NCBI GenBank assembly: GCA_963796365.1
Contig: CAWCLJ010000004.1
Coordinates: 1,354,519 to 1,418,518 of the forward strand
DNA from: an uncultured Chloroflexia bacterium
GTDB lineage: Bacteria > Chloroflexota > Dehalococcoidia > Dehalococcoidales > RBG-16-60-22
DNA: 64,000 nt
Direction: 5' to 3'
In this document: positions 5,405-64,000 of the stretch, piece by piece
Layout: the number at the start of each line of letters is the position of its first letter
Numbering within the stretch: the first letter of the stretch is position 1
Notes under the pieces: model-generated
The model's database searches: none
What the model saw: only the letters and a program-made list of their open reading frames with translations
What the model was told of the DNA's origin: nothing
Made by a program: the position numbers and the translations under genes

Positions 5405-6712
5405 ATGAATTACAAAGAGTCGCTGGACTACCTTTTAAAATACGCTGATTATGAACGCCTGCCGCGCTCCGGCATCGTCTGGGACTTAAAGCGTGTCGAA
5501 AGCCTGCTGCACCGCCTGGGCGAACCGCACAAGTCCGCCCTCACCGTCCATGTCGCCGGGACGAAAGGCAAAGGTTCCACCTCCGCCATGATAGCCTCCA
5601 TTCTCAAGACCGCCGGCTATAAGACGGGCTTATACACTTCACCCCACCTCCTCTCCTATACGGAACGCATCCAGGTCAACGGCAAACCGATTTCCGAAGA
5701 AGGCTGGGCCAAACTCGTCGAGATAATCCAGCCCTATGTCGAGGCGGAGAATAAGGAAGCCAAATACGGACAGCTTACCACCTTCGAGCTTTATACCGCC
5801 ATGGCTTTCCTCCATTTCCAGCGCGAAAAGTGCGAGTACCAGGTGATGGAGGTCGGGCTGGGCGGCCGCCTTGATGCCACCAATGTTGTCGACCCGTCCG
5901 TCTGCGTCATTACCTCCATCAGCTTCGACCATATGGACGTACTCGGAGATACTTTAGCGAAAATTGCCGGGGAAAAGGCCGGCATTATCAAACCGGGTGT
6001 GCCGGTGGTCAGCGCGCCGCAGGTCCCGCACGCAATGGACGTCATCGAGGAAAGATGCCGGGAAAAGCACTGCCGCCTCGTTAAAGTAGGGCAGGACGTT
6101 ACCTGGCAGCGTTTGGACTTTACGACGGAGGGCCAGCACTTCAAGCTTAAGGGGCTGAAAGGCGAGTACGATTTACACCTCCCGCTTATCGGTGAGTTCC
6201 AGATGGAGAACGCGGCCAACGCCGTCGCCGCGGTAGAGCTGCTTAAAGGCGCGGCTGTTTCCAAAGAATCGGTCGCGGACGGGCTGGCCAAAGTAAACTG
6301 GCCGGGGCGCCTGCAGGTGCTTGGGAAAGAGCCCTGGGTCATCGTGGACGGCGCGCACAACGCCTATTCCATACAGCAGCTCGGGAAAGCTTTAAAGGAC
6401 TATTTCCGCCCCACTGCCATCAAGCTGATTCTCGGTTTCGGGAATGATAAAGACATCGCCGGCATGGTGCGGGAAGCGGTCAAGTTCGCCGATGATGTTT
6501 TCCTCGTCCAATCCCGCCACCCTAAAGCGGTCAAGGGTGAAGTTTTAGCGGCGGAGTTCGAAAAGAACGGCATCACGCCGCGGGTGGCTTTAAGCGTTAA
6601 GGACGCCATTACGATGGCGGAAGCAGAAGCCGGGCCGACCGACGTTATCTGCGCCGCCGGCAGCATTTTTGTGATTGCGGAAGTGATGGAGTGGGCGGGC
6701 TTAGGTTCTTAA
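5405..6712 (+). CDS. folC: Bifunctional folylpolyglutamate synthase / dihydrofolate synthase
   Basis: 435 aa. P-loop HVAGTKGKGST and Mur-ligase-like layout (GLGGRLDATN, DGAHN). Confidence 0.9.
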   Translation: MNYKESLDYLLKYADYERLPRSGIVWDLKRVESLLHRLGEPHKSALTVHVAGTKGKGSTSAMIASILKTAGYKTGLYTSPHLLSYTERIQVNGKPISEEGWAKLVEIIQPYVEAENKEAKYGQLTTFELYTAMAFLHFQREKCEYQVMEVGLGGRLDATNVVDPSVCVITSISFDHMDVLGDTLAKIAGEKAGIIKPGVPVVSAPQVPHAMDVIEERCREKHCRLVKVGQDVTWQRLDFTTEGQHFKLKGLKGEYDLHLPLIGEFQMENAANAVAAVELLKGAAVSKESVADGLAKVNWPGRLQVLGKEPWVIVDGAHNAYSIQQLGKALKDYFRPTAIKLILGFGNDKDIAGMVREAVKFADDVFLVQSRHPKAVKGEVLAAEFEKNGITPRVALSVKDAITMAEAEAGPTDVICAAGSIFVIAEVMEWAGLGS

Positions 6713-6853
6713 AATCCCTCTCACTCTCCCGCGTATCAAGTACGGGGCAGGCTCTTTTTCAAAGGGAGAGGATGATTGACTGAGTTATTGAATCGCTGGT
6801 ACGGCTATATCTTCATCCCTCTTTTGTAAAGAGGGACAGGAGGGAGATTTAAA

Positions 6854-7382: not shown

Positions 7383-7434
7383 GGTGAAATAATATTTTGA
7401 AGCTGGCCTAGCTTCAATTTATGACAAAACCCTA

Positions 7435-7464
7435 TTGACAAAATTAGAACGTTAGTGCTAAGAT
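7435..7464 (+). promoter_or_regulatory. Sigma70-like promoter (TTGACA-18-TAAGAT) with upstream (T)ATGACAAAA module, no downstream ORF
   Basis: TTGACA 7435-7440, TAAGAT 7459-7464. The same module recurs at 12255-12298 and 61673-61718. Confidence 0.45.
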
Positions 7465-7532
7465 GTTCCAGCAGGAGTAACGAAAATGGGTATTTTGAGC
7501 GTGAGTTAGCTATGAATAATTCGATTGCAACA

Positions 7533-7700
7533 TTATGTTATATTAGCCTCGGCCCAGGCGTGAGTCGTTTTTTAAGGGTTTTATGTTAAATCAGGCTCGG
7601 TCCAGGCATAAATCGTTTTTTTGACATATTATGGTAAGCCTGGATACGATTCAGGCTCAAGGCGTGTTTTCAGGGTAGTTATGTTAAATAAGGGGTAAGT
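7533..7700 (+). repeat. About 4 tandem units of ~48 bp (ttatgtta...ggctcgg.ccaggc...tcgtttttt)
   Basis: Units start at 7533, 7581, 7629 and 7679. The first two end in T6-7 runs; the third is weaker (T4 run) and the fourth degenerates into a ggggtaag stutter. Confidence 0.6.
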
Positions 7701-7720
7701 TATTAGGGGTAAGGGGTAAG

Positions 7721-7773
7721 TGTCATTGCGAGCCATTGATCCACCTCCGGCGGAGAAAGGCGTGGCAATCTCT
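7721..7773 (+). repeat. Repeat family A (tgtcattgcgagc...aggcgtggcaatctc)
   Basis: Near-identical to 61794-61846. Related to 59225-59270 and, in reverse complement, to 59908-59955. Confidence 0.7.
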
Positions 7774-8156
7774 AAGATTTTACAAGTCCGATGATTGAGA
7801 TTCTCACGCCTTGTCGGCCCTTAGTTCACCCTCACCTTTTCATTCCTCTCCCGTCAAGGGAGAGGACAATAGGAAAAAGGGGTAAGGATAATATCGTATG
7901 GTCGGCAATGGCCCAAAATGACAAGAAAAAAACGAATCAGGGGATTTGAGGCTGAATTACCATAAATTCAGGGACGAGTGACTGAAGCTAATCACGCGTG
8001 GGAAAATAATAAATATTGTTGGGACGAATAGTCGAATAAAGGTAGGGCGAGGCAGGGGTCTTTAAGAGAGGGTGCGTTGCACCCTCTACGTCAGGCTATT
8101 CCCTGTTTACATTTCTGAATGGTTCAGAAAAGGCCTCGATTTGAAAAAACGTTGAT

Positions 8157-8205
8157 GGATTCCTGCCGGAGTTTACATTAAGTTAAGCGAATGTGCAGGA
8201 ATGAC
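8157..8205 (+). repeat. Repeat family B hairpin (ggattcctgccggagttta...gtgcaggaatgac)
   Basis: Copies at 43243-43291, 53816-53864 and, inverted, 1905-1953. The termini ggattcctg/caggaatgac are self-complementary. Confidence 0.7.
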
Positions 8206-8218
8206 GAGTAGGAGCAAA

Positions 8219-8272
8219 GGTAGGGCAGGCGTCTCGCCTGCCCATCACAGGCAAGATGCCTGTGTTACCGGG
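8219..8272 (+). repeat. Repeat family E (ggtag.gcaggcg...gcaggcaagatgcctg..taccggg)
   Basis: Second copy at 12448-12501. At the first locus it is immediately followed by a ggtgggcaaaa...ttttgcccacc hairpin; a related ggtgggtaaaa...tttacccac hairpin lies about 300 bp away at 12796-12831. Confidence 0.65.
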
Positions 8273-8319
8273 TTGGTGGGCAAAAGAAGGGTGTAAAGGG
8301 TTTTGCCCACCCTACATTA

Positions 8320-10962
8320 CTAATTGCCTGTCTCTTTTATCGGCAGCGTGAAATAAAAAGTCGAGCCCTTGCCCAATACTGATTCCACCCATATTTTCCC
8401 GCCGTGCGCTTCCACCAGACGTTTACAGACCAGCAACCCCAACCCCAGCCCCGGTCTGGTTACCGATGTTTCCTGCAGCCGCTCAAAAGAGCTGAACAGT
8501 TTTGACTGGTCTTCGGCGGAAATGCCCTTTCCCTGGTCGCTGACGCTTAATAAAATATAACCGTTCCACCGCTCGCCGCATATCATAATTTCGGTGTTAT
8601 CGGGAGAATATTTTACGGCGTTATCCACCAGGTTCCTGACGATTCGTTCCAGCCTTACCCTGTCGACATCGATATACGGCAGTTTTGGATTGATTTTGAT
8701 TGATATCTTATGGCTTGCCTTGAATTTTTCACTCTGATTTACGATGTTTTCCACCGCTTGTTCAACATTCAGTATATTTTTTGAAAGCTGCAGCCGTTTG
8801 GCCTGGTATCTCGATAGTTCCAGCAGGTTGTCCAGGATATGGGCGAGGTCTTCGGAGCCTTCCTCCGCCGAGATTAATAGTGTTTTCAAATCTTCCTGGC
8901 TGATGCCTTCGCTCAAAGCTACTTTCACGGCGCCCATGATGATTGTCAGCGGCGTGCGCAGTTCGTGGGAGACCATCCCGATAAAATCGTCTTTTATTTG
9001 TTCCGCTTTCCGGCGTTCCGTAACGTCATGGTAGGTGACAATCAGGTATTTCAGGCTCCCATCCGGTTTTAAAAGCGGTTCAGCGCTTATCAGCATCCAG
9101 GTGATTTCTCCGCCGGAAGGCAGCCTCACCGCGACCAGTTTTTCTCTCACCGGTTTGCCGGTCATCACGGCTTTTCTCACCGGGTGTTCGTCCACGAGGA
9201 GCAGCGTTTTTCCATCCTCTTCATATACTTTCCACGCGCTCCAGTCCCGGCTGTTTACATTCAGGATACCGGTATCTTCAGCCAGGCCGAACAACTTCAG
9301 GAAAGCAGGATTGTAAGCGGCGATTTTACCGTTTTCATCTATCAGCGCTACCCCGGATTCCAGGTTTTGTAACAGGATGTTGAATCTTTCTTCACGCTCC
9401 AGCAGTGCCTCTTCCGCCTTCTTGCGCCCGGTGATGTCACGAGAAAGAACAGCAAAGCGGCCTTTTTGGGGCGAATAGACATAAACTTCAACCCAACTTC
9501 CGATAATTGAGCCGTATTTCTCAAAAAGAACCGGCTGACCATCGAGCGCAACTTTACCGAGTTCTTGAATCCAAGAGGGGTCAAGAGCGGGTGCAATTTC
9601 GCTGACTTTTTTGCCGATTATCTTTTCATGAGGCAAATTAACAGTCTCTTCGAAAACACTGTTTACTTCAAGAAATAAATAATCTGCCGGGCTTCCTTTG
9701 GCATCAAGTATAATCTCACAAAGGGCAAAACTATCTGTCATGCTATTAAAAAGACGACGGTATTTTTCCTCGCTTTCTTTTAAAGCCTCTTGTGCTTTCT
9801 TGCGCTCGGTAATGTCGCGGAACACCAGTACTACACCCTGTTTCCGCCCGCCGGCATCATGAATTGGCGCGCCGCTATCATCGATAGGCACCTGGGTTCC
9901 GTCTTTCCGCACCAGGACGGTGTGATTAGCCAGGCTGACAATCGTCCCTTCCCGGAGCACCCGGGTGACAGGGTTCTCATCTGGCTGCCGGGTATTTTCA
10001 TTTACAATATTGAACACCTCAGCTATCGGACGGTTGGAAGCTTTGCCTATCGTCCATCCGGTCAAATTTTCCGCGATGCGATTCATGAACGTAATCTTAC
10101 CGGCCTCATCAGTGGCGATAACCGCATCGCCGATGCTGTCCAGTGTCGTCAGCCATCTCTCCTCACTTGCTCTTAACGCTTCCTCCGCTTGCTTGCGCTC
10201 TTCAATCTCTTTTTCCAGGTCCGCTTTGAAAGCAGTCACATTTTTCAGGTCGGCTGTCATCCGGTTGAAGGCCCGTGATAAATTAGTGATTTCATCGTTC
10301 CCTTTTTCTTCGATCTTGTAATCCAAGTTGCCGGACCCGATGGCGGCGGCGCCGGCGGTTAGATTGGAAAGCGATGAAGTGATGCCCCGCCTCGTTCTGA
10401 CCAGCACAAAAGTGAGCGGGATAACGGCCAGCGCCAAAGCCAAAAAGCTGATAACGATAGTCCTGGTTTCGATGGTTTTAATGCCGTTATCTACCAAACT
10501 GCGCAATGCCGCGGCATTGGTATCTGCTTCGTAAGACGTTTGCAGGAGCAGACCCACCAGCCGGTCTTCCGTCGACTGGAATTCCGGCGTGCCGGCGGCA
10601 CCGGCACTCTCATAGTAGGAAACCAGTTGAAGAAAGTAGTTGTTCATGGTCACGCTGTCGTCCCGGACATTGTTAAGAAGTTGCTGCTGGTCCGGGTTAT
10701 TGACCTGCGCCCCGGCAAGCTGCTGCGTAAGTACGTTATACTCCGCCAGGAACTGCTGCTTCGGTCGTTCCTCGTGGTAGAGAATATAGGAAAAGACAAA
10801 GTTGTTCAGGTCCGTAATGCTGCTCCGTATTTGCCTGACGGTATCTCCCGTGTTCTGTATTCCTGCCATTTCACGAGAAGAAAATAACAGCGCGCCAACG
10901 ACGATAAGCGCCATGACGGCAGAGACATACACGGCCAGCAGTAATCTTGTACTGATTTTCAT
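8320..10962 (-). CDS. Sensor histidine kinase (TM - HAMP - multiple PAS - HisKA - HATPase)
   Basis: 880 aa. H-box SHELRTPL, N-box DNAVKYS, G-box GLGLGL, and repeated PAS-like [13 protein letters not shown] boundaries. No adjacent response regulator. Confidence 0.9.
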
Positions 10963-10971
10963 GTATTACCC

Positions 10972-12042
10972 CTATTTACCCGCAATTGTGGCATCGGGCT
11001 TGATTAATTTCAAGGCATCCGCATTGATATAGTCCAGGGAATCGGGTACATTTTTCCCGGCGGTCATATTGTTGCTTATCATCCAGCGCGCCTCGTCTTC
11101 CATGTCCAGTATCAACGGCTGATCAAGTGAAAGCGAAAATTTGTATTGAGGCCAGACGGCGTCCAGATAGGCTTCATCGAAATTTAACTGCTTTTCAATA
11201 ATTTTCCTGGCTTCAGCAGGGTGGTTAACGAGAAATTCTTCCGCCTGTGACAAAGACTTAAGCAATTTGACAACTATTACCGGTTGATTTTTAAGCCACT
11301 CATTCGTGGAAACTGCCAGCGCATATAGAGGCTGTCCGCTTTGCGCCGACTCGAAAAAGGCATTCGCCCCCAGCTGGTCCCTGACGGAACTGGCGTAAGG
11401 TTGCCCGATCACTACCGCGTCAACATCTCCATTTATAATGGCAGCTACCGAACCTGCCGGCGTCTTAACGTTAACAAGTGTAACATCCTTGATATTCATG
11501 CCATTCAATTCCAGTAGCCGGCCGATACAGAAGTCCGTTATGGCCCCGAAAATACTCCCGACTTTCTTGCCTTTAATGTCGGAAAGCTGTTTAATTCCAT
11601 GGTCTTTCCGCCCGATAAGATAAATGGTGTCACTCTGTGCCACCGAAGCAAACGTGCTGATATCGGCTTTTTGCAGCGCCCGGGATGCCAGCGGGAATTC
11701 GGTTATGTTCCCCACTATATCGCAATCGCCTTTAAACATCGCATTTACCTCTGTCACCAAAGAATCATACTTGACGAAGGTTACTTCAAGACCGTTCCGG
11801 TTGAAAAAGCCCTAGTCTTGAGCAATCCAGTAAAAAGCCGTTTCCAGGTAAGGCGAATATCCCACGGTAATCGAATCTACCGGGCCGGAATAGCTGCGGG
11901 AGCACGATGGAGAAATAAAAGCCGCTGCGAGGGTAGTGAAAATAATCAGGAGAACTAATAACAGAATAAATGGTATTTTCCCCAGCCGTTTAAGGTTGAA
12001 CTGGCGTGTTTGATTTTGCGGTTGGGAAGTTTTTTTTTCCAT
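10972..12042 (-). pseudogene. NMT1/THI5-like (NitT/TauT-type) ABC substrate-binding protein interrupted by an in-frame TAG
   Basis: ORFs 11812-12042 (signal/TM N-terminus) and 10972-11760 are in the same frame. Read-through gives ...YWIAQD*GFFNRNGLEVTFVKYDSLVTEV.... The stop is at 11812-11814. Confidence 0.7.
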
Positions 12043-12254
12043 GCAAACGGGTGTTTTTTCGCAATTATTTTCAGGATAAAGATTCCTGAACTTCGCTATT
12101 ATATCTTATTTTATCTGCTTGAAACAGGTATAATTAAGCTTAACCACTGTAAAAATATTACACTTTTATAACATTTTGCTAAATGGCAAATACCTTTTGC
12201 ATATTTATTCTACGCTCACCCACCGCTCATCCTGAGCTTGTCGAAGGATCAATT

Positions 12255-12298
12255 GTGACAAATACGCCTTGACATAATCAGAACAATTGTACTATTAT
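12255..12298 (+). promoter_or_regulatory. Promoter-like module TGTGACAAA-N5-TTGACA-18-TATTAT, no downstream ORF
   Basis: TTGACA 12269-12274, TATTAT 12293-12298. Homologous to the modules at 7421-7464 and 61673-61718. Confidence 0.4.
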
Positions 12299-12447
12299 TA
12301 CCTTGCACTATCACTAATGCTTATAAGTCTCTCCCTTTGTAAAAGAGCCTGCCCCGTACTGCGATACGGGGGAGATTAGGAGGGATTTTGCTCCCTTTTC
12401 GATGAACGATACAGCACTTTAACAACTGAAGAATGCGGAGCATGGTG

Positions 12448-12501
12448 GGTAGAACAGGCGTCCCCGCCTGTTCAGGCAGGCAAGATGCCTGCCCTACCGG
12501 G
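12448..12501 (+). repeat. Repeat family E
   Basis: ggtagaacaggcgtccccgcctgttcaggcaggcaagatgcctgccctaccggg; compare 8219-8272. Confidence 0.65.
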
Positions 12502-12697
12502 AAAACCAATCGCTAATTGCTAATGGCTAACGGCTATCAAATCGAATGAACGAAAAACTGGGAAAATGAAGCTATTTACCACAAAACGAAAAACGGATAT
12601 TTAGCTTCAACCACGCTCGAAAAAGATTCGTTAAAAAAGATTACTTAAAAATCGAAGATTTTACAAAATAAATCGTATCTGAAATCCCATCCCCGCC

Positions 12698-12761
12698 CTG
12701 ATATCCTTCGCTTCCGCCTACGCCAAGGCTTCGGCGGACAAGACGCTCCAGGATGACAAAC
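12698..12761 (+). repeat. Repeat family D, long copy (64 bp)
   Basis: ctgatatccttcgcttcc...gctccaggatgacaaac. Termini are identical to those of 12918-12981. Confidence 0.7.
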
Positions 12762-12917
12762 CACCGGCAGGGACGCGGGTGCTACCGGGGTTACTTGGTG
12801 GGTAAAATAAAGGGAAAAGGGGATTTACCCACATCACTAACAGCAATGGGCCAGCTGGGTTGGGTATTTGTCATTGGTACTTATTTGACATGGAACTTAT
12901 TGGTGGATTCCCCCACC

Positions 12918-12981
12918 CCGATATCCTTCGCTTCCCGATTCACTTCGTTCATGCGGGACGGGTCGCTCCAGGATGACAAAC
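12918..12981 (+). repeat. Repeat family D, long copy (64 bp)
   Basis: ccgatatccttcgcttcc...gctccaggatgacaaac. Confidence 0.7.
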
Positions 12982-12983
12982 AT

Positions 12984-14954: not shown

Positions 14955-15128
14955 TTTGTTTGATTATAGATTAAAGCGGAGAAATTGACAAAGGATAGGG
15001 AATAGGGAGTAGGGAATAGGGGGTAGTGAATAGTGAATAGTAAGTGGAAAGAAGGATACGGATTCTTCGTTGCGCTCAGAATGACATGAGGGTTTTGAGA
15101 TTTGAGTTCTTCCGGCTATAATTACCCT

Positions 15129-23820: not shown

Positions 23821-23940
23821 ACACCCCACAAGATTAATCGCAAACTAACTTTTTACGCTGGAAAAGAAAAATGGTGGTGGGGTGGTGTTGGGCCTAACTA
23901 CTAACTACTCATTACTGGTGGGGTTGTGCGGTGTGGGGCA

Positions 23941-23963
23941 TTGGTAGGCCGTACAGGATTCGA
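23941..23963 (-). repeat. 23-bp copy of the tRNA-Lys 3' end (old att remnant)
   Basis: ttggtaggccgtacaggattcga is identical to 34837-34859. Confidence 0.7.
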
Positions 23964-25373: not shown

Positions 25374-25518
25374 AGGTATAAAAGTCTATTCGGGAGTTTA
25401 CGGAGTTTTTCAAGCCCGGGGGTAATACCTTCCGGGCTTGATATTTTATCCAGGTCGACGGGAAACTAGTGGAATGTGCAAAGGGTGAAACAAGAGATGT
25501 TTTAAATGGGCAGGGTTT

Positions 25519-25561
25519 ATTGGTAGGCCGTACAGGATTCGAACCTGTGACCAATGGATTA
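25519..25561 (-). repeat. 43-bp direct repeat of the tRNA-Lys 3' part (distal att site of the island)
   Basis: attggtaggccgtacaggattcgaacctgtgaccaatggatta is identical to 34836-34878. Confidence 0.85.
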
Positions 25562-25583
25562 TGAGTGTTGGGATTCTTACTCA

Positions 25584-33416: not shown

Positions 33417-34835
33417 TTATTTTACAACTTTCGGGAATATTTGAATCTGTTCTTTTTCAGACAAATTGAATTCGAATTGGAGTTCTCTTGGCGCAATGTA
33501 TACTTCATCTGCCATACTTGCCTTACCTAATTCGAAAGGCAAATAGGTCTGATTTATGGATTTCAAACTCGCATCTTTATATTTACAAATAATCAAGTAT
33601 TTTCCTTCTGATAAATGCCTTAAATTAGGACAGAATTCCATTTCTTCCTTTACTCTTAATACAGTATTCCTATTAGCTTCAAATAGCTTCAATTCTTTAT
33701 CAAATAAAGCTATTTCAACTTCGATTGCAGGCGAATTTCCATCATTATAGGCAATAAAGTGAGAATGAAAATCGCTTGTAATAGCATTGGGGACTTTTAC
33801 AGAAGGTTTACACATCGCTTTTATAACCACAATCGGTTGTTGTTCGGATTTTGCTAACACTATATTCTGTTTATCAGTAGGTATTTCGCTTTTCTCTTGA
33901 TCTATCAAATCAATTGCATCTTTTAAATGCTTGTCAGTATGTAATGTATATCTTTCTGTATGTACTAAATTGGCATGTCCTAGCAATGACTGAATTTCTC
34001 TGATAGTTGCCCCTTTTTCAGAAAGGGAAGTCGCAAAATAGTCTCTAAGGCTATGTGTATGAATATCAACCCCAGCTTTTGTTGCAAAGAAACGGATTTT
34101 ACCACTTATCGAGGCTGGGACTAAACCAAATAAACTTCCTGTTTTGTCTCTGCCTTTTATATAAGTGTTTAGTTTTCCCATCGTATTTGTTGATAACGGG
34201 ATAACCCTGTCTTTAGCACCTTTGCCTTGCCGGACAATCAAAACCTGTCTTTCGGGATCAATATCCCCTACTTTAAGGTTCGCAAGCTCACTACGCCTTA
34301 ATCCGGTATGAATTGCCAGGTCAACGAGTAGAATATCCCTCTCAATGGTTTTCTTGTGGCTCTTTTTCGATTTTAGAGCGTCCAGAAGCTTTTCAACATC
34401 AGTTTTCTCAACATAAGAGGGCAATATTTTAGGAACACGGATATTAATATCCAAATCTTCTCCATACCATTTGAAAAAGACTTTAAGGATTGCAGCATAA
34501 CGTCCTAGTGTTGTGGGCTTACACTTCATGAATTGGGAAAGAAATGATTTAGCCAATTCGGGAGTAGGGGGATATTCACCCAAATACGAATGAAAGTGAT
34601 TAACTACCCGCTTTGCCTCATGGATTCCTTTTTCAGATCGATGATGAAAAGCTAATTCACCGTCATACAATGCGAATAGTTCGTTATTAGTCTTTTGACG
34701 CAATTCCAAATGTTTCCGTCCTTTGTTACCCAGAAGTATAAACAGTAACTCTCGGAATTGCAATAGTTCTTTAACTTCAGGGAGAACCTGCGACTTTTTG
34801 AGGAAATCTAGAGGAATTTCTTGAGATTTGAATTC
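33417..34835 (-). CDS. Tyrosine recombinase/integrase with ~140-aa C-terminal extension
   Basis: Catalytic R (GLRRSEL), HxxR (HSLRDYF) and Y (HTERYT). The track ORF runs to 34871, but its first 12 codons are tRNA sequence, so the true start is uncertain. Confidence 0.85.
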   Translation of the reverse strand, partial: EFKSQEIPLDFLKKSQVLPEVKELLQFRELLFILLGNKGRKHLELRQKTNNELFALYDGELAFHHRSEKGIHEAKRVVNHFHSYLGEYPPTPELAKSFLSQFMKCKPTTLGRYAAILKVFFKWYGEDLDINIRVPKILPSYVEKTDVEKLLDALKSKKSHKKTIERDILLVDLAIHTGLRRSELANLKVGDIDPERQVLIVRQGKGAKDRVIPLSTNTMGKLNTYIKGRDKTGSLFGLVPASISGKIRFFATKAGVDIHTHSLRDYFATSLSEKGATIREIQSLLGHANLVHTERYTLHTDKHLKDAIDLIDQEKSEIPTDKQNIVLAKSEQQPIVVIKAMCKPSVKVPNAITSDFHSHFIAYNDGNSPAIEVEIALFDKELKLFEANRNTVLRVKEEMEFCPNLRHLSEGKYLIICKYKDASLKSINQTYLPFELGKASMADEVYIAPRELQFEFNLSEKEQIQIFPKVVK

Positions 34836-34837
34836 AT

Positions 34838-34913
34838 TGGTAGGCCGTACAGGATTCGAACCTGTGACCAATGGATTAAAAGTCCACTGCTCTACCAGCT
34901 GAGCTAACGGCCC
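34838..34913 (-). tRNA. tRNA-Lys (anticodon UUU), CCA encoded
   Basis: The reverse complement reads gggccgttagctcagctggtagagcagtggacttttaatccattggtcacaggttcgaatcctgtacggcctacca, which folds as a cloverleaf with anticodon loop cuUUUaa. Confidence 0.9.
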
Positions 34914-50902: not shown

Positions 50903-51324
50903 GTCTGCTCTCCCTTAATTTAAGTCGATGGGCATCTGGTTGACGCAAAAGCACCGTTTAGCCGTTTTTTTTGTAATATACAGCAGCCTTTTCACAGTCG
51001 CTCTTAACTAATTTATCAATTAATTATCAGAACAAAAAAGGCAACGAGGGAGATATGTCAAATATTTCCTTCCGGCCACTCCTCCGGGCGGAAAATTTAA
51101 TTTTGCCAGAGTTTAGCACGAAACGTTAAGTATGTCAATTTTGCATCAAAGCTAAACCTGGCTATTGCGACTATATTATATTCATCATTTGAAAAATAAT
51201 CCAGTTGTGTTGCAAAAAATGAAAATTGGAATGTAAAATCAGGTATTTACTTAGGTCTGAAAAAAATGTCGCCGTTTGAGCTATACTAATTAGGAATGTA
51301 ATTCAGGAAGGAAAAGATGCGGTT

Positions 51325-53011
51325 ATGGAAAACAATTTCCTCTCTTATGAAGTTCTTAGCCCCTGGGCGGAAGCCGACCCTGTTCCGTTTAAAGGCATTA
51401 ACCCCCGGGTAGATAAGCTTGACGGCAAAAAAATCGGTTTATTTTGCAATACCAAGCGGGTGGCTGAGCCTGCTTTAAAGGTGGTTGAAAGCCGTTTAAA
51501 GAAAGCTTATCCTGCCGCAGGGACCAGCTGGTTTTTCAATATGGTGCCTAACGAAGCGATTATTGAACAGCCGCGGAAAGGTGAATTCGAAAGCTGGCTA
51601 AAGGGGGTGGACGCGGTCATTGCCGCTTACGGGGATTGAGGGTCCTGCACCAAGTACCTTGTGTACGACGCAGTTTCCATTGAAGACCGGCAGAAACCGG
51701 TTGTCGCGCTGGTGAATTACGGATTTATGAATGATGCCGAATCCGCTTCCCGCGCCAAGGGGATGCCAAATGTAAGAGTGGTATCTACCAAAGTCCCGTG
51801 TGAAAGCACGGTCATCGCCGATATTGAGGCCGGAATAGATGGAGCCTGGAACGATATTATTTCCGCTTTAACGCGCTCCCTCACCGCCGAAGAAAAGAAT
51901 CCCCGCGTAGAAAAAAAGGAAAAGCCGGAACGTATTATCTTTAAAGGCAGCCTGGAAGAGGTCAATCTCTTTTTCTACCGGCGCGGCTGGACGGACGGCC
52001 TGCCTGTCATCCCTCCCACTGAAGCAGCGGTCAAAGAAATGCTTACCGGCACGGACCTGCCCCCGGACCGCTTATTGGGTAAATTGCAGTCCCGCAATGG
52101 CAAGGCCACGGTAGAAAAAATCGCAATCAACGCCGTCATGGCCGGCTGCCTGCCCACCTATCTGCCGGTAATTATCGCCGGTACGTTAGACCTGATGAGA
52201 ATCGGAACCCGGTTTTGCCGGCTATACCACCTTTGGTTTCAGCACCGGCTCCTGGTCGCCCTTCTGGATTATCAACGGCCCGGTACGCAACGAGATTAAC
52301 GTCAATAACGGTTCCGGGGCCTTCAGCCCGGGCAATATCGCCAATGCCGCCATCGGCCGCGCCATGGGGTTGATAATTAAGAACATCGGCGGCGTGCGCA
52401 AGGGCATCGAGGACATGGGAGTGATGGGCAACCCCATGAAATATACGATGGTGATTGCGGAAAACGAGGAAGAAAGCCCGTGGGAGCCCCTGCACGTGGA
52501 GCTTGGTTATAAAAAAGAGGACAGCACTATCACCCTCTCTTTCCCGCAATCATACTTGCAGCATTACCCTGCGGGTACGGACCCGGCAAGCGTTTTGCAA
52601 TCAATTTTGGAAAACATGCCGCGCGGTATGCGTTATACGATCGTCATGAATCCGGCTTATGCCAGGAACTTTGCCCGTGAAGGTTTTACCAAGGAGACCA
52701 TTAAAAAATATATTGCGGAAAATAGACTTGTCCCGGCGACCCAGCTAAGACCGCAGGCTGTTATCTCCGGTCAGGGCGGGCCTGAAACGCGGCCTTCATC
52801 GCGGGAAGAAAATAAAATGGTACCGCTGATAAGAGACCCGCGTTTTATCAGGATCATCGTAGGTGGTGGACCGGGCGCGTTCGTGGCCCATCTCATCGGC
52901 GGCGGCGCTACTCCGGGCCAGAAGGAAATCCAGAAAATCGAGCTGCCGAAGAACTGGGCCAAACTGGTTGCCAAGTATAAGAATGTGGTGCCAAACTACA
53001 CAAAATACTGA
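51325..53011 (+). CDS. Candidate selenoprotein, paralog 1 (GD-U-GSC motif); needs TGA read-through at 51637-51639 and a +1 frame change near 52199-52210
   Basis: Track ORFs 51325-51639 and 51661-52299 are in the same frame across the TGA. ORF 52364-53011 continues the homology in the +1 frame. About 561 codons when joined, and colinear with paralog 2. Confidence 0.55.
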
Positions 53012-53189
53012 ACAATTTTTGCAACTAATAATTATTGGGCATAACATATAAATAATTACATGAAAGGGTATGGAAGTAACAAGTAGCAACCGTTCAAGTA
53101 ACAGGGAATGATTAAGGAGAGAGGGAGAAATAACCAAACATCTATTCACAATAACCAAATTCTCAGGCCCCGTCATTAAGAGCTCGCTG

Positions 53190-53755
53190 GATACCCCCCA
53201 GCTAGGCTGGGGGGAGGAAAGCGAGTTCGCCGAAGGCGAAGCGGTTGATAGGATAGGAAAATCGTGGTATAAAGGTGGGGTGGCAATAAGAAGGACGAAA
53301 CACGCGGTTTATGAGCTGAAGTATCACCTAGTCTGGGTACCGAAATACCGAGCGCATATATTGGGTGGGGAGGTAACCCAGTACTTAAAAGGAATCTTCA
53401 GGCAGATAGCCGAGGAGTATGATTTTCAAATAGAGGCGATGGAGGTAATGGCGGATCATGTACATGTATTTATCGAAGCGCCGCCATCGTACTCGCCATC
53501 AGAAATAGTGCAGGTGTTAAAGAGTATATCGGCAAAAGAAGTATTTAAGAAATACCCAAGGATGAGGAAAATAATGTGGAGTGGGAAGATGTGGAACGAG
53601 GGTTATTATGTTAGGAGTGTGGGGGATAAAGTAACGAGTGAAGTGATCAAGAAATATATCAAATATCAGAAATATGAAGATAAAGACAGTCAGTTAAGGA
53701 TGTTCGAAAAGGGGTAGGGAAGGGAGAAGCCCCCCAGCTCTGCTGGGGGGTACGT
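53190..53755 (+). mobile_element. IS200/IS605-family element (tnpA only)
   Basis: Flanking hairpins ccccccagctaggctgggggg (53194-53214) and ccccccagctctgctgggggg (53730-53750) bracket tnpA. The boundaries are approximate. Confidence 0.8.
53280..53717 (+). CDS. tnpA: IS200/IS605 family Y1 (HUH) transposase TnpA
   Basis: 145 aa. YELKYHLVWVPKYR, HVHVFIEAPP (HUH), GYYVRSVG. Confidence 0.92.
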   Translation: MAIRRTKHAVYELKYHLVWVPKYRAHILGGEVTQYLKGIFRQIAEEYDFQIEAMEVMADHVHVFIEAPPSYSPSEIVQVLKSISAKEVFKKYPRMRKIMWSGKMWNEGYYVRSVGDKVTSEVIKKYIKYQKYEDKDSQLRMFEKG

Positions 53756-53779
53756 CACTCCCGATCTAGTCGGGAATCC
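53754..53779 (-). repeat. Repeat family C mini-hairpin (inverted)
   Basis: gtcactcccgatctagtcgggaatcc. Confidence 0.55.
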
Positions 53780-53864: not shown

Positions 53865-53963
53865 GTTTCGATTGGTTATTATTTTATTAACCCATTTCTC
53901 ACTTCCTTGATACTTGCTACTTGGTAATTGATACTTTTACTAATCATAAGGAGGTTATGTTTT

Positions 53964-55635
53964 ATGGACCAGAAAAACACGGCTTATGAAGTATTAAGCC
54001 CCTGGGCGGAAGCGGATCCCATTCCCTTGCACGGTCTTTCACCGCGGCTGGATAAACTGGACGGCAAGAAAATAGGCTTGTTGGCCAATAACAAGCGCGC
54101 CGCTCCCCTTATCCTGGATGTCACGGAAAAACTGCTCAAGCAAAAGTTCTCCGGCGTGCAGACCAGCCGGTTCCGGGCCCGCTCTTTTTCCGTATCATCA
54201 CTGGAAAAGGACCGCGAGGCGGAGTTTAATGAATGGATTAATGGGGTGGATGCGGTTATCGCCGCCGTCGGGGACTGAGGGGCATGCACCAAGTACCTTG
54301 TGTACGATGCAATTTATATCGAGGGCAAAGGCAAGCCCGCTTCAACCTATATTTTTGAGCATTTCTACAATGACGCCATGTCCGCTGCTTCCAGCAAGGG
54401 CATGCCGGTCATCCGGGTCGTCAAGGAAAAAGTAGTTTCCGAATGTACGGTGATGGCCGAGCTTGAACCGGCTATTACCGCGGTCTTCACTGAAGTTATC
54501 GATGTTTTAACGAAACCTCTCACCGCCGAGGAAAAAGCCCCGAAGCGGAAAGAGCCGGAAAACCCGCCTCGGCTGATTTTCAAGGGTAACCTTGCAGAAG
54601 TCAACGAGTTTTTCTATCGTCGGGGCTGGACGGACGGCTTGCCTATCATCCCGCCCACCGAGGAAGCGGTTAAAGAAATGATGGCCAGCACGGATTTCCC
54701 GGCCGACTACCTGGTGACAAAGCTTGAGCCGCGTATGGGCAAAGCTACTGTCGAACGTATCGCTATCAATGCGGTGATGGCCGGATGTTTGCCGACTTAT
54801 ATGCCGCTGTTAATTGCCGGCGTGCAGGCGCTTGGGGCTAATGCCGGCCCCGGTATGATGGCGGCGAGCACCGGCTCCTGGGCGCCCTTCTGGCTGATTA
54901 ACGGCCCGGCTTCCCGAGATCTTAAATTTCCGTTCTACCTACGGCGCATCCAGCCCCGGCGACATCGCCAATGCTGCCTTCGGGCGTGCCATGGGGCTGA
55001 TAACCAAAAACATCCGCGGCATCCGCAAGCAAATCGAGGACATGGGCGTCCTCGGTAACCCGGGGAAATTCTCCTTTGTCGCGGCGGAAAACGAGGAAAA
55101 CAGCCCGTGGGAGCCTAACCACGTGGACCACGGCTTTAAGAAGGAAGACAGTACCGTCACCCTGATGTTCCCTAATACCTACCAGCAGATGATGCCCTTC
55201 GGGACGGATGATAAAGGTATCCTCGGCACCATCATCGGCAGCATTTTCCCCGCCCGCATCGGCGGTTTTGTCGCGATATTAACGCCCAACAACGCCCAGG
55301 CATTAGCCAGGCGCGGCTGGAGTAAGCGAAAGGTCAAAGATTATATTGTGGAAAATGCCATCGTCCCGGACGATTATTACAGCCGACTGGGACTGGATGC
55401 CAGGGAGATTGTCGGTAAAGGGGTCATGACGCCGGAGGATTTCAAACGTATCTTTATCCCCTCCAAAAACGACCCCGACCCGGTGCAGGTCTTTGTTTAC
55501 GGCGGGTTCGGCTCCTGGGTAGGACTGGCGCAGGGCGGCGGGGCGCCGATTGTTAAAAAAGCGGAGCTGCCGAAAAACTGGGTTAAACTGGTAGCCAAAT
55601 ACAAGAACGTTGTCCCGAATTACGTGCGGTATTAG
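53964..55635 (+). CDS. Candidate selenoprotein, paralog 2 (GD-U-GAC motif); needs TGA read-through at 54276-54278 and a +1 frame change near 54913-54921
   Basis: AAGGAGG lies 9 nt upstream of the ATG at 53964. ORFs 53928-54278 and 54300-55058 share a frame across the TGA, and ORF 54991-55635 continues in the +1 frame. About 556 codons when joined. Confidence 0.55.
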
Positions 55636-59167: not shown

Positions 59168-59224
59168 GCGATGCCTCCTGTTTTAATTACTAATAAACAA
59201 TTTCCAAACATCGACTAAATTAAT

Positions 59225-59270
59225 TGTCATTGCGAGCCATCGAGATGAAGTCGAGAGGCGTGGCAATCTC
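59225..59270 (+). repeat. Repeat family A
   Basis: tgtcattgcgagccatcgagatgaagtcgagaggcgtggcaatctc. Confidence 0.65.
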
Positions 59271-59380
59271 ACTAATCGGTTTGTGCTATTGATAAATTTT
59301 GCGCAGGGCTTTTAAATACAGATACCATTATTTCATCTTTGAGATGTGTTTTTGAGATTTGTTTTTTGATTTTTGATTTA

Positions 59381-59803
59381 TTAATCCGGTGTATTCCCCA
59401 CCCTGGAATAGTGTTCGCCGATAGCGAGGTCAATAAAGAGCAAAGGTTTATTTATCTTTTTAAAGACGACCGGGCCGTGATGGGTCCCGGCCGGGATATA
59501 CACTGAAGAAGGCTCTTTGATTACGTGTTTTTCCCCTTCGATGGTTATTTCTACTTCCGCATCAAAGTCGTGGGCGTCTTTGGGGTTGGCCGAATAAAAA
59601 TTCAGGTACTGGGGAAATTCATGCACGTGCGGCTGGGAAATCATGACATGGGCCTGGGTGACGTAATCCGTATCCATGCTCATGAACCCGCCGCCCCATT
59701 TATCCCCGAGATGCCGCGTGCCGGAGACGCTAAGGTTCGGGTTTTCCTCGCTTTTGTAAAATAAGTCCGTCGTGATTAATTTATCGTATTTGCCTTTAGC
59801 CAT
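59381..59803 (-). CDS. Cupin-like protein, paralog 1
   Basis: PHVHEFPQYLNF and YIPAGTHHGP (cupin-like His motifs). The ATG at 59803 is preceded by GAGGAG. Confidence 0.55.
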   Translation of the reverse strand: MAKGKYDKLITTDLFYKSEENPNLSVSGTRHLGDKWGGGFMSMDTDYVTQAHVMISQPHVHEFPQYLNFYSANPKDAHDFDAEVEITIEGEKHVIKEPSSVYIPAGTHHGPVVFKKINKPLLFIDLAIGEHYSRVGNTPD

Positions 59804-59907
59804 GTTTCTCCTCTTAAAGATAATTGTCATTCCGAGGAATCCTTCCGCCTTCTTTACCTTTGGAAGGATGACGTGGGAATCTCTATTATTGACTTAAGTT
59901 CATCAAT

Positions 59908-59955
59908 GAGATTGCCACGCCTTGTCGGCTCCGCCTCCAATGGCTCGCAATGACA
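59908..59955 (-). repeat. Repeat family A (inverted copy)
   Basis: gagattgccacgccttgtcggctccgcctccaatggctcgcaatgaca. Confidence 0.65.
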
Positions 59956-59961
59956 GGGTTG

Positions 59962-60411
59962 TTAATCCGGTGTATTCCCGACCCTGGAATATTTGGCCGT
60001 CACTGCTATATCGATAAAGAGCACCGGCTTATTAATTACTTTAAAGTTCAGCGGCCCGTGGTAAAGCCCGGCGGCGACATAGATGGAAGTGGGCTTGGTA
60101 ATGATGTATTTTTCGCCGTCTTTTTCGTTGTCTCCCACCGTCATTTCTATTACCGCATCAAAGTCCCGAGAATCATTGGCGTTAACGGAAAAGAAGTTCA
60201 GGTACTGGGGAAATTCGTGCTTGTGGGGCTGGGAAATCATCAGGTGGGGGCGGGTAAGAATCATGCAGTCCACCGAAAGGTGCCCGCCGCCGAATTTGTC
60301 CTGCAAATGCCGCGTGCTGGTCAGGAAATGCCCGGTCTTTTTGCCGTCTTTATCGATGGCTTCAAAGACCACTTCATCCGTGAAATATTTATCGAACTTT
60401 CTCTTAGGCAT
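59962..60411 (-). CDS. Cupin-like protein, paralog 2
   Basis: 149 aa. PHKHEFPQYLNF, YVAAGLYHGP, and the same C-terminus YSRVGNTPD as paralog 1. Confidence 0.55.
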   Translation of the reverse strand: MPKRKFDKYFTDEVVFEAIDKDGKKTGHFLTSTRHLQDKFGGGHLSVDCMILTRPHLMISQPHKHEFPQYLNFFSVNANDSRDFDAVIEMTVGDNEKDGEKYIITKPTSIYVAAGLYHGPLNFKVINKPVLFIDIAVTAKYSRVGNTPD

Positions 60412-60845: not shown

Positions 60846-61424
60846 TTACTGCCACATTTCTTTCATCTTCGGCGGCAGGACGATTCTTCTTTCCGGGTCG
60901 CCGTAACCCTGGTAGATATACATCATTTTATTATCGTTCTCTTCTTTTGTGCAGAGTTCCGGATGCGGCTTTTCCGTATGGATTTCTTCCTGCATGACGG
61001 TTACGATAACGAAAGGCCGCGTAACCTTGTGGATTTCCCACGGGCTGTGGATGAAGCCGGCCGGCAGGTAGACGAGGCAGGATTGGGTAATCTTGTGGAG
61101 TTCTCTTTCTTTGCCAAGGTACATCCAGACTTCCCCGCCGAGGTCCATCGGGTTGTCCGGGTCGGTCCCGAGGTGAACCATTATCTCTGGTTGCATATGC
61201 TCATGAGGTCCGTGGCTCATATTCTTCCAACTCGCATTGCCCTTAGCATTGGTAACATTGCGGGGTTTTTCGTAGACCCAGTGGACATGGTACTGGTGGG
61301 AGCCCGGGAACTTTTCATTGTTTACCCAGGCAATTTTTACCCCGCTGGCCGGCGGGTCCCCGGGCTGCTGTCCTGAAATAATGTACTTGTCATAGAGTAA
61401 GGGTTTTTTTGCTTTGGTTGGCAT
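60846..61424 (-). CDS. Cupin-like protein, distant paralog 3
   Basis: 192 aa. HGPHEHMQPEI and YLPAGFIHSP. Confidence 0.5.
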   Translation of the reverse strand: MPTKAKKPLLYDKYIISGQQPGDPPASGVKIAWVNNEKFPGSHQYHVHWVYEKPRNVTNAKGNASWKNMSHGPHEHMQPEIMVHLGTDPDNPMDLGGEVWMYLGKERELHKITQSCLVYLPAGFIHSPWEIHKVTRPFVIVTVMQEEIHTEKPHPELCTKEENDNKMMYIYQGYGDPERRIVLPPKMKEMWQ

Positions 61425-61672
61425 GTTTTTCTCCTTTTAATCTATAAGCCTATTTTTTAAGATTTTACTCTTAATACGACTATTCGGCAAACTTGGTTAT
61501 ACAAACGGAACAATCGTTAACCGCATCGCGGGACTTGCCCGGTACTTTAGTCCCCGGGCCTGTCCGCCAGGCTTATTTATTAATATATGAGTCTAAAGTT
61601 TCGAGAAGCGTGCGCCTTGGCGGGTAAATAGAGATAAAGTAAAAAAATCTTAGTCTTGTTTCAGCTTCAAAT

Positions 61673-61718
61673 TGTGACAAAATGCTATTGACAACTTTCT
61701 CTTACGCTGTTGTATACT
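61673..61718 (+). promoter_or_regulatory. Promoter-like module TGTGACAAA-N6-TTGACA-19-TATACT, no downstream ORF
   Basis: TTGACA 61688-61693, TATACT 61713-61718. 20 of 24 upstream positions are identical to the module at 7418-7441. Confidence 0.4.
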
Positions 61719-61793
61719 TTAATCCTCTCCCTCTGTCATCATGGAGAATACTTTACCCATCTCTCCCAACCCAGTTAGGAATCCATTTGTAAA

Positions 61794-61846
61794 TGTCATT
61801 GCGAGCTATTGATCCACCTCCGGCGAAGAAAGGCGTGTCAATCTCT
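61794..61846 (+). repeat. Repeat family A
   Basis: tgtcattgcgagctattgatccacctccggcgaagaaaggcgtgtcaatctct, nearly identical to 7721-7773. Confidence 0.7.
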
Positions 61847-62482
61847 GGGGCTGTTATTGGTAATTCCGTGCCTTACCGCACTCTTTTGAAAGGTAAAAGG
61901 GTAGGGGTTGACCCATCCACTCCATACCGGCGAAAGCCGGTATCCAGGTATTACCAAGGTAGTGCCAATTAACGGGTAAATCAAGCACATTTTGAATATC
62001 TGGATCCCGTTTTGCAGCGGGATGGTTAAAGGTACATGGAATGAGATAAGCACCTTAATAACAAAATATTTTGTAGATGGTATCAAAGGCGTGCCTGCCT
62101 GTGCGGGCAGGCACGTTTATCCGCCGTAGCCTTGGCGTAGGTGGGGAGACCTGCCCCACTGGTTCTAGATGATGAAACTTACAAAACAAATCGTATCTAA
62201 AACGAAAAACTCGTTAATAAAATTACAAAACGATTCGCATCTATTTACCATAATACAAGGTGAAAAATTATCGTTTATTTAAGGTTGAATCGAAGCTGAC
62301 ATTTTTCTTTTAGCTTCAAGAAATTAAGAAAAAATCCAAAAAGCCTTTTTTACAAAACAAATCGAAGCGAAAAAGTCGTACCCTTTCTGTTAACGTAAAG
62401 AACGATAATAGAAAAAGTCAGGGGAAAAACTGGTGGGGGCTGAAAGCTGACGGCTGATAGCTGAAAGCTGACTGCATATCGC

Positions 62483-62957
62483 CTACGTAAACACCATCTC
62501 AATAAGGTGCGGCCCCTTTTCATCCAGCGAGCGTTTGATTTCAAAAGCCAGGCTTTCGGTCGTCTCCACGGAAACGGCCGGTACTCCCATCCCCTCCGAT
62601 AACTTGACCCAGCCGATATCCGGGTCGGTGATATTGGTCAAAGAGTTTCCCCGCCAGCCTGATTTCATGACCGCCCGTTAGAGGCGTTCCGGCGCGGCGG
62701 GCATTATGCAAAATGGAGGTCGCGTTAGCGAGCCCCGGGCCGAGGTGGAGCAGCGTCATGGCCGGCTTTCCTTTTATTCTTCCACACCCATCCGCCGCCC
62801 CGGCGCAAACTCCCTCGTAAAGACACATTACCGGCCGGATACCGTTGGCGGTATCGAAAGCCGCTGTCAGAGGTATCTCCGTCGTCCCGTAGTTAGTAAA
62901 ACAGACATCAATACCGGCATTGTGAACGGTCTTCAGAAGGAGTTCTGCATTATTCAT
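62483..62957 (-). pseudogene. Thiamine-diphosphate enzyme (acetolactate synthase-like) remnant with a large internal deletion
   Basis: ORF 62541-62957 is the N-terminal TPP_enzyme_N domain ([10 protein letters not shown]). ORF 62483-62668, in another frame, is the extreme C-terminus (...[14 protein letters not shown]...GPHLIEMV). The middle and PP-binding domains are absent. Confidence 0.65.
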
Positions 62958-63273: not shown

Positions 63274-64000
63274 CTAGTCAAAGTCTTTCATATCGATAGG
63301 CCAGCCGGCACCCTCATCGGCTTGCAGGGCGAGCTTGGCATAAATGCACAGCATGCCTTTCACGTGGGCCTGGGAAGGCGCTTTCCATTGTGCTTTTCTC
63401 TTCGCCAGTTCGGCATCGGAGACCTGCAGTTCCAGCTTACGGGCCGGGATATCCAGGTTAATCTTGTCGCCGTCTTTGACTAAAGCGAGCGGGCCGCCCA
63501 CCTGCGCCTCCGGGCAAACATGCCCGATGGAAAGGTAGCCCTGGGTAAAGCCGGAGAAACGCCCGTCTGTGATGATGATCACGTCCTGTATCTTATATTG
63601 CTTGAGCGGGGATAGAGCGCTGAGACATTCCGCAAAAGCCGGACCGCCCCGCGGGCCCTGGTACTGGAGGACGACGGCATCGCCGGGTTTGATTTTACCG
63701 GCAGCCGCGCCTTCATTAATTCCCTGCACGGAAGTAAATACCCTGGCGGTATAGACTCTTTTCAAGAGGTCTTTATTTTCCACCACCGTATGGCGGACGA
63801 CGGCGCCGCGCGGAGCGAGATTCCCGGTTAGAACGCCGTCGCGCCTTCCGGCCAGAGGGACGTATTGAGCGGCCGGATGATTTCATTGTCTAATACCTCG
63901 GCATCTTTCAGGTTTTCGCCGACGGTCTTGCCGGTAACGGTAATGCAGGACTTGTCCAGCCATTTCTCGATGCGTTTCATGACAGCTGGTGTGCCGCCGG
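63274..64000 (-). pseudogene. ilvD: Dihydroxy-acid dehydratase, 3' part (continues beyond the window), frameshifted near 63846-63880
   Basis: The C-terminal part reads GVLTGNLAPRGAVVRHT...ITDGRFSG...GHVCPEA. The upstream part, GGTPAVMKRIEKWL...EIIRPL, is in a different frame, and the frame change lies at a GGG/CCC run. Confidence 0.8.

Follow-up and report, generated by a model that had tools for sequence, protein, structure and literature searches.

The question raised by this locus is what a promoter-like module is doing at the head of a long stretch without genes, and why the same module heads two further such stretches in the 64,000 nucleotides of DNA analysed here (the window). Homologues of FolC placed the window in an uncultured member of the Dehalococcoidales (Chloroflexota) whose nearest relatives are 79–80% identical in this protein, and because Dehalococcoidia genomes are small, kilobase gene-free gaps need explaining. 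A sequence-only reading had described the three sites as a family of non-coding transcription units, or as antisense or insulator elements. The explanation which we put first, tentatively and with somewhat less than even confidence, is that the module forms the conserved, promoter-carrying end of small non-coding insertions, probably integrative and mobilised in trans, which lie at gene 3' ends in one lineage of Dehalococcoidales.

The pattern TGACAAA-N{4,7}-TTGACA gave three exact matches in the window (7422-7440, 12256-12274 and 61675-61693), all on the plus strand, where shuffled sequences lead one to expect 0.01; the module is thus non-random and present in three copies, as had been proposed. 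The gap between the two boxes, described earlier as five or six nucleotides, is six in every copy. No variant of the module with one or two mismatches was found in the window when up to three mismatches were allowed. When the 64-kb window was scanned with a structure-free Infernal model built from the three window copies and one homologue, the copies scored 47–55 bits and the runner-up site, which is the promoter of a MarR gene, scored 10 bits, so that the window holds no decayed copies. With invariant boxes, free sequence between them and no tail of decayed copies, the module is sharply delimited. Copies 1 and 3 are identical at 28 of 32 positions (7410-7441 and 61663-61694) and have AGCTTCAA-(W)TTR in common upstream of the boxes. 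In copy 1 this element begins at 7410 and not, as first read, at 7413, while copy 2 does indeed lack it and has TCAA only. On the minus strand, the inverted repeat that overlaps the start of copy 1 (Table 1) had a terminator-like score. The sequence-only reading had missed that most of the spacer between -35 and -10 is alike in copies 1 and 2.

Each copy has a -10-like hexamer downstream of TTGACA (TAAGAT at 18 nt, TATTAT at 18 nt and TATACT at 19 nt in copies 1, 2 and 3), and all three window copies thus have a sigma-70-type promoter in the sense of a -35 TTGACA and a -10 TAnnnT placed 16–19 nt apart. Ordinary genes in the window have promoters of the TTGACA-17-TATAAT type without a TGACAAA box, and for this reason canonical sigma-70 signals can be considered meaningful in this organism. 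The module follows the same rules as these promoters, in keeping with its original description as promoter-like, and its spacers of 18–19 nt are longer than the 17 nt of the ordinary gene promoters. Judged by its sequence the module may be an active promoter, and the TGACA boxes would be bound by protein, namely by sigma region 4 together with either a recombinase at an arm-type site or a regulator. No intrinsic terminator was found after the module promoters.

A GAAC-N4-GTnC palindrome is present between -35 and -10 in copy 1 (AGAACGTTAGTGCT), in copy 2 (AGAACAATTGTACT) and in the related locus L012 (CGTACATATGTTCT). Each of the three is one mismatch away from GAACN4GTTC, the consensus of the Gram-positive LexA box (PMC4234289), and the half-sites are kept while the central N4 differs. 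Copies 1, 2 and L012 might on this evidence be SOS promoters, repressed by LexA at an operator formed by the spacer palindrome and serving a damage-induced small RNA or tiny toxin. LexA of Dehalococcoides has reportedly been found with this type of box, and LexA-controlled sigma-70 promoters of Gram-positive bacteria likewise have the palindrome between -35 and -10. We nevertheless hold the SOS explanation to be very unlikely, since there is a mismatch in the box of every copy that has one, copy 3 and the L015 homologue have no palindrome, boxes with one mismatch are not enriched across the window (3 found, 1.3 expected), and neither a small hydrophobic ORF nor an SOS gene was found downstream. 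The LexA-like palindrome may therefore be taken as a lead for one module subfamily only. In a by-eye comparison with CRP, Rex, Pho-box and IHF sites, and for L015 with sigma-54 sites, either the spacing or one half-site failed in each case.

Table 1. Positions of the module copies, their downstream tracts and associated features (window coordinates unless a related locus is named).
Feature	Position	Strand	Details
Module copy 1	7410-7464	+	AGCTTCAA 7410-7417; TGACAAA 7422-7428; -35 TTGACA 7435-7440
Module copy 1, promoter spacer		+	palindrome AGAACGTTAGTGCT 7446-7459; -10 TAAGAT 7459-7464
Module copy 2	12249-12298	+	TCAA 12249-12252; TGACAAA 12256-12262; -35 TTGACA 12269-12274
Module copy 2, promoter spacer		+	palindrome AGAACAATTGTACT 12280-12293; -10 TATTAT 12293-12298
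Module copy 3	61663-61718	+	AGCTTCAA 61663-61670; TGACAAA 61675-61681; -35 TTGACA 61688-61693
Module copy 3, remainder		+	-10 TATACT 61713-61718; no spacer palindrome
Hairpin ATATTTTGAAGCT / AGCTTCAATTTAT	7392-7422	+	inverted repeat; 3' arm is the AGCTTCAA part of copy 1
Tract 1	7465-8319	+	ORF-free; 48-nt tandem repeat 7532-7637; TAAGGGG heptads 7689-7720
Tract 1, motif GATTTTACAA	7771-7785		
Tract 1, dispersed repeat families			further members at 61789, 59908, 43238, 53811, 1905 and 12448
Tract 2	12299-12983	+	ORF-free; repeat 12329-12389 in common with 6711-6770
Tract 2, 13-mer CACTTTAACAACT	12415-12427		in common with L012
Tract 2, GC hairpin family	12448-12501		
Tract 2, A-rich block			GAAGCT..AGCTTC hairpin 12568-12608; TTACAAAATAAATCG 12661-12675
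Tract 2, 71-nt hairpin family	12691-12761, 12911-12981		two copies
Tract 3	61719-62482	+	ORF-free; repeat family in common with tract 1, 61789-61846
Tract 3, GC hairpins	62088-62160		
Tract 3, A-rich block			TTACAAAAC motifs 62179, 62223, 62350; GAAGCT..AGCTTC hairpin 62292-62317
Tract 3, GCTGAAA repeats	62439-62480		
PAS/HAMP histidine kinase	8320-10962	-	between module copies 1 and 2
NMT1-type binding protein	10972-11760	-	precedes the kinase gene; likewise between copies 1 and 2
folC-end direct repeats, L025	11278-11307, 11628-11657		
folC-end direct repeats, L027	10902-10950, 11136-11184, 11821-11834		three copies
folC-end direct repeats, L013	11303-11326, 11459-11482		

The tracts downstream of copies 1 to 3 are the three longest intergenic gaps of the window outside a low-GC island at 24–34 kb. 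They run up to the stop codons of minus-strand genes for a histidine kinase (8320), an RNase D-like protein (12984) and a decayed fragment of a TPP enzyme (62483), respectively, which bears out the convergent layout first described. The absence of credible ORFs was borne out as well: on the plus strand of the tracts no SD-led ORF of at least 8 aa was found other than a 10-aa GTG ORF at 7762, inside a repeat element, and a 7-aa ORF follows module copy 1 only. A type III toxin-antitoxin system was considered and rejected on the grounds that tandem 48-nt repeats occur in tract 1 only and that no plus-strand ORF lies downstream.

Relic promoters of genes that have decayed past recognition would also leave gaps of this kind, and the region is rich in pseudogenes. 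Two fragments beside tract 3, one N-terminal (62541-62957) and one C-terminal (61 aa, 62483-62668), are the remains of a TPP-enzyme (acetolactate synthase-like) gene, and of the nearby dihydroxy-acid dehydratase gene (ilvD) only the C-terminal 170 aa are left (63274-63786). The NMT1-type binding-protein gene has an in-frame TAG (11812-11814, minus strand) which splits a 76-aa N-terminal part (11812-12042) from the 262-aa remainder and may reflect a pseudogene or a sequencing error. Pfam searches in six frames of the three gaps, however, revealed no gene remnant apart from the N-terminus of this adjacent binding-protein gene, and the same cassette with the same gene-less layout occurs in four other genomes, so we regard relic promoters as highly improbable.

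The proposal that the tracts form a family of non-coding RNAs was not upheld. With Rfam 15 at gathering thresholds the window gave tRNA-Lys only; with E values up to 5, tracts 1–3 gave noise (best E 0.7–3), and the tracts of L012, L015, L025 and L027 had no match, so that the covariance-model scan suggested earlier for the three downstream regions identified no family. Folding of the first 130–140 nt of the tracts was no better than that of shuffled sequence (z from +2.1 to -1.6), and the only motif common to all three was a single 11-mer with one mismatch allowed, as was also obtained in shuffled controls. The shortest tract, that of L015, has about 190 nt and the longest about 850 nt; the tract repeats are also found in gaps without the module, and the module is absent at orthologous sites. 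What stands of the original interpretation is that the module is non-random, that no gene ever follows it and that the arrangement is always convergent; homologues with this layout in related genomes speak for it as well.

BLAST of each tract against the window showed that the tracts are mosaics of short repeat families, members of which also occur in gaps without the module (1905, 6711, 43238, 53811 and 59221-59955). The hairpin families are 68–93% identical and include decayed copies. Two components had been missed by the sequence-only reading, a GAAGCT-loop-AGCTTC hairpin that occurs three times in the window, once per module region (0.07 expected), and TTACAAAAYAAATCG, whose four occurrences in the window are confined to tracts 2 and 3. 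An A-rich block of about 100 nt containing the hairpin, A-runs and TTTTACAAAAYAAATCG can be aligned between tracts 2 and 3. A shorter block reported earlier as common to these two tracts is real, with 22 of 24 positions identical (12661-12684 and 62179-62202), although it does not lie at 62172 as had been stated. Similar A-rich AAATC arrays are present on the minus strand at 59330-59395 in a gap that has no module, and we therefore consider the A-rich and hairpin vocabulary to be a trait of intergenic DNA in this lineage and not specific to the module loci. G-rich or purine-rich heptad arrays were also seen in intergenic DNA, (TAAGGGG)4.6 at 7689-7720, (ATAGGGA)6.6 at 14995-15040 and (GCTGAAA)4.7 at 62439-62471; the first of these has several GGGG runs and could form a G-quadruplex.

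In such a setting the module could be a functionless motif of a REP/BIME-like mosaic, its likeness to a promoter incidental and its spread due to recombination among repeat clusters. REP/BIME clusters of enterobacteria sit in such positions, at gene 3' ends and in the longest gaps, and here too the module lies at gene 3' ends, in the longest gaps and among many dispersed hairpin families, with hairpin and A-rich motifs common to several regions and similar AAATC arrays in a further gap that has no module. We judge this explanation unlikely, because the module occurs only intact and with invariant boxes whereas the hairpin families have decayed copies, and because a -10 at 17–19 nt has been retained in nearly every copy and the same polarity towards a gene 3' end in all of them. 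There is a wider resemblance to the REP/BIME systems of enterobacteria and pseudomonads: these are extragenic clusters of short dispersed hairpin repeats and other conserved motifs which inflate intergenic length and which lie mostly at gene 3' ends and between convergent genes, as the clusters in the window do. We know of no BIME motif, however, in which a complete promoter with -35 and -10 is always oriented towards the gene. A REP system driven by a RAYT was also rejected, since the only Y1 transposase in the 64-kb window (53280-53717) is of the IS200 type, with 158 bits for the IS200/IS605 model (NF033573) and 45.7 bits for the RAYT model, the cut-off of which is 80. Within the region 53170-53760 this transposase is flanked by hairpins of the form CCCCCCAGCT-3 nt-CTGGGGGG (53196-53216 and 53730-53752), and it sits between diverged copies (70–81%) of a segment of about 1.3 kb (51323-52561 and 53962-55188).

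Homologues of the module were found in relatives. A scan of metagenomes yielded one true homologue, L015, which aligned with module copy 3 over 89 nt at 76% identity (E 2e-13); the homology takes in AGCTTCAA, the two boxes and the spacer, continues through the first 30 nt beyond them and reaches 61752. The nadC gene of L015 groups with Chloroflexota/Dehalococcoidia. The cassette lies there after the terminator of the upstream gene and is separated from the stop codon of the convergent nadC by about 190 nt of ORF-free hairpin sequence. The -10 of L015 is displaced, the aligned hexamer being CACACT at 19 nt with a TATAAT at 24 nt, and promoter geometry is thus not strictly kept in this homologue.

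In the closest FolC relative, L012 (80%), TTGACA-17-TATTAT follows the same DUF6941 gene and lies on the minus strand. This cassette and copy 2 are identical at 30 of 39 positions and have in common CCTTGACAT-N15/16-CTATTATTAC, a combination that has no other match in the window or among the 27 loci, and the exact 13-mer CACTTTAACAACT is found 120–170 nt downstream of the cassette in both. About 550 nt, made up of hairpins and an A-rich block, separate the L012 cassette from the DUF6941 stop codon which it faces, a mirror image of copy 1. At 3610-4323 of L012 a promoter that contains tandem TGTGATACA repeats diverges from this cassette, and behind it lie two small genes, of 89 and 125 aa, which look like a toxin-antitoxin pair.

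Between folC and ribD, L025 and L027 have a conserved minus-strand block, TGTGACAAAA-N5-TTGCTT-17-CATTAT, that is directed at the stop codon of folC; REP-like hairpins and an A-rich stretch, in the same vocabulary, come after it. Because the TGTGACAAAA block scored only 7.7–9 bits against the module model (E 0.1–0.27), and is linked to the module by a 10-mer and its context, we consider the relationship probable but not proven.

A scan for the module in a genome collection that does not include the source genome gave nine matches in unrelated taxa. Pattern matches outside the lineage in L002, L006 and L008 precede ordinary genes, and as their number is near that expected by chance and no homology extends beyond the pattern, they were not counted as evidence. 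Two unrelated pattern matches, L007 (4031-4057) and L008 (7722-7747), one from a Parcubacteria MAG and the other from an uncultured bacterium, are both directly followed by TTGACACAAATGGG, which may be due to chance or be a wider promoter-proximal motif. Viral contigs contained nothing related, and six matches to the pattern of copy 2 and L012 were dismissed as generic AT-rich phage promoters.

In all six independent loci (copies 1–3, L015, L012, and L025 and L027 counted as one) a convergent gene has its stop codon opposite the cassette, and no ORF intervenes. Under random orientation a fixed polarity in six loci has a probability of about 0.5^6 = 0.016. At orthologous places the cassette was found to be missing: it is absent after DUF6941 in L021 and in the P0122 contig, after nadC in L023, whose NadC is 87% identical, and from L013 and L026, the former of which does have hairpin repeats. 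Absence at orthologous sites in close relatives fits insertion better than it fits a conserved regulatory RNA gene.

These observations bear on the possibility that the sites are stand-alone regulated non-coding or antisense units, in which one factor binds TGACAAA immediately upstream of the -35 and so controls several promoters together, and the transcripts act as small RNAs or work against the convergent gene by antisense pairing or collision. Canonical promoter geometry like that of ordinary promoters in the window, invariant boxes with variable spacers, a convergent orientation with no gene ever following, and homologous promoters in relatives would all be expected of such units, and the 13-mer conserved in the tracts of copy 2 and L012 could be a seed or loop. 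Yet the three transcripts would have neither sequence nor structure in common, would match no Rfam family and would have no intrinsic terminator after their promoters, while the module is not conserved at the orthologous loci of relatives and the geometry of the L015 promoter is broken. We regard regulated units of this kind as possible but somewhat unlikely.

The interval between folC and ribD provided signs of insertion. In relatives its cargo consists of a toxin-antitoxin pair, an HSDR_N-like gene, a methyltransferase, a GGDEF protein, a TIR protein or an unknown gene, and in the window of DUF6941, the kinase with its binding protein and the RNase D-like gene; as the cargo differs in every genome examined, the interval is an insertion hot spot. 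The kinase and binding protein are lineage-specific cargo, and relatives run from folC to ribD without either gene. A cassette of kinase and binding protein travelling together with the module was rejected, the kinase having no close orthologues (at most 45% identity over the full length).

Direct repeats of the last 24–49 nt of folC, with its stop codon, surround non-coding inserts in L025, L027 and L013 (Table 1), and the TGTGACAAAA box is found a few bases in from the distal folC-end repeat. These repeats are an att-like signature, the pattern of site-specific integration into a gene 3' end, with tandem accretion in L027, and the 3' end of folC seems to be an attachment site. Around the three window copies no duplicated 3' end of a flanking gene, folC included, was found, nor is there an integrase next to them; the phage-type integrase of L025 is about 3 kb off, beside a tRNA. 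In L015, AGCTTTAAcCTGG just left of the cassette resembles by eye the nadC end AGCTTTAAtgCCTGG (8 exact bases and a gapped extension), and nadC ends in ..TTGAAGCTGATTTAG in L023 and L024, which by eye is the reverse complement of CAGCTTCAA of the module. Both, the likely duplication of the nadC end and the match of the module to that end, are taken as leads only.

Our preferred account, insertion at gene 3' ends, would bring these observations together as follows. The cassette has two direct TGACA(A) boxes 13 bp apart, the second of which is a perfect -35 with a -10 lying 17–19 nt further on, and one subfamily has the GAAC-N4-GTnC palindrome in its spacer. The boxes may be arm-type recombinase sites or, equally, a regulator site fused to the -35. 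Located at the gene-distal end of the insertion and aimed at the host gene, the cassette would, if it fires, have the insertion body transcribed into non-coding RNA in the direction of the convergent gene. This body would be non-conserved filler loaded with REP/BIME-like hairpin repeats and A-rich short-repeat arrays, and it is by accumulating repeats that it would have made the gaps so long. Cassette and body would move as a unit. Counted in favour of insertion were the three exact copies without intermediates, in which the N6 gap and spacer vary and the boxes do not, the homologues at non-orthologous or inverted places (L015 next to nadC, L012 on the minus strand), and tracts without coding remnant, Rfam family or fold signal. 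Counted against it were the variety of targets (folC, nadC, histidine kinase, RNase D-like and TPP-enzyme genes), which a site-specific integrase would not usually have, the window copies with neither a duplicated gene end nor an integrase beside them, the low model scores of the L025 and L027 block, the by-eye reading of the nadC end and the displaced -10 of L015.

Three kinds of element that are already known, namely dispersed intergenic repeats, MITEs that carry promoters and att-flanked element remnants, each resemble the insertions in part. Correia elements (CREE) and promoter-carrying MITEs are likewise short, non-coding and dispersed, and bring promoter elements from which transcripts across neighbouring genes are possible, but neither the module nor the module with its tract is bounded by terminal inverted repeats or a short target-site duplication, and the body is not conserved. 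With CIMEs and decayed integrative elements the inserts of relatives have in common their position at a gene 3' end between direct repeats of that end, the tandem accretion seen in the three copies of L027 and an interval of variable cargo, and the direct-repeat boxes near an att copy resemble arm-type sites. They differ in that the inserts are only 0.13–0.7 kb and gene-free, that several host genes are targeted, that the window copies showed no att duplication and that no recombinase is linked to the inserts.

To our knowledge, a gene-less insert with a conserved cassette aimed at the 3' end of a host gene has not been described in Dehalococcoidia, although our survey of the literature was not exhaustive; a limited search on related terms returned nothing relevant. 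That the insertions represent an undescribed gene-less mobile element, made up of a promoter cassette with direct-repeat protein-binding boxes and a variable non-coding body and inserted with fixed polarity at gene 3' ends, is in our estimation quite unlikely. We would give just as little weight to the suggestion that such an element functions through convergent transcription into the host gene or through an RNA from its body, and it is a similarly long shot that its roles might include read-through control, antisense regulation or an RNA-guided step in its own mobility.

Should the insertion account be correct, it would explain the origin of the kilobase gene-free gaps and identify folC-ribD as a hot spot of the lineage, and TCAA-N0/1-TTRTGACAAA-N6-TTGACA could serve as a search pattern for such insertions in uncultured Chloroflexota. 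If the promoters are active, the sensor kinase, the RNase D-like gene and, in relatives, folC would receive convergent antisense transcription which annotation pipelines would miss.

Two minor observations concern other parts of the window. The 192-aa protein encoded beside module copy 3 (60846-61424) has no Pfam match, and the same is true of the adjacent 149-aa minus-strand ORFs at 59381-59830 and 59962-60411, which are paralogues with DNA segments 78–94% identical. The 3' part of the tRNA-Lys(UUU) gene (34838-34913, minus strand) is repeated twice upstream, at 23939-23963 and 25516-25566 (25–51 nt, 94–100%); together with the region on the tRNA side (34833-34913) these repeats bracket the low-GC DNA at 24–34 kb (32–43% GC), which looks like two tandem islands integrated at the tRNA gene.
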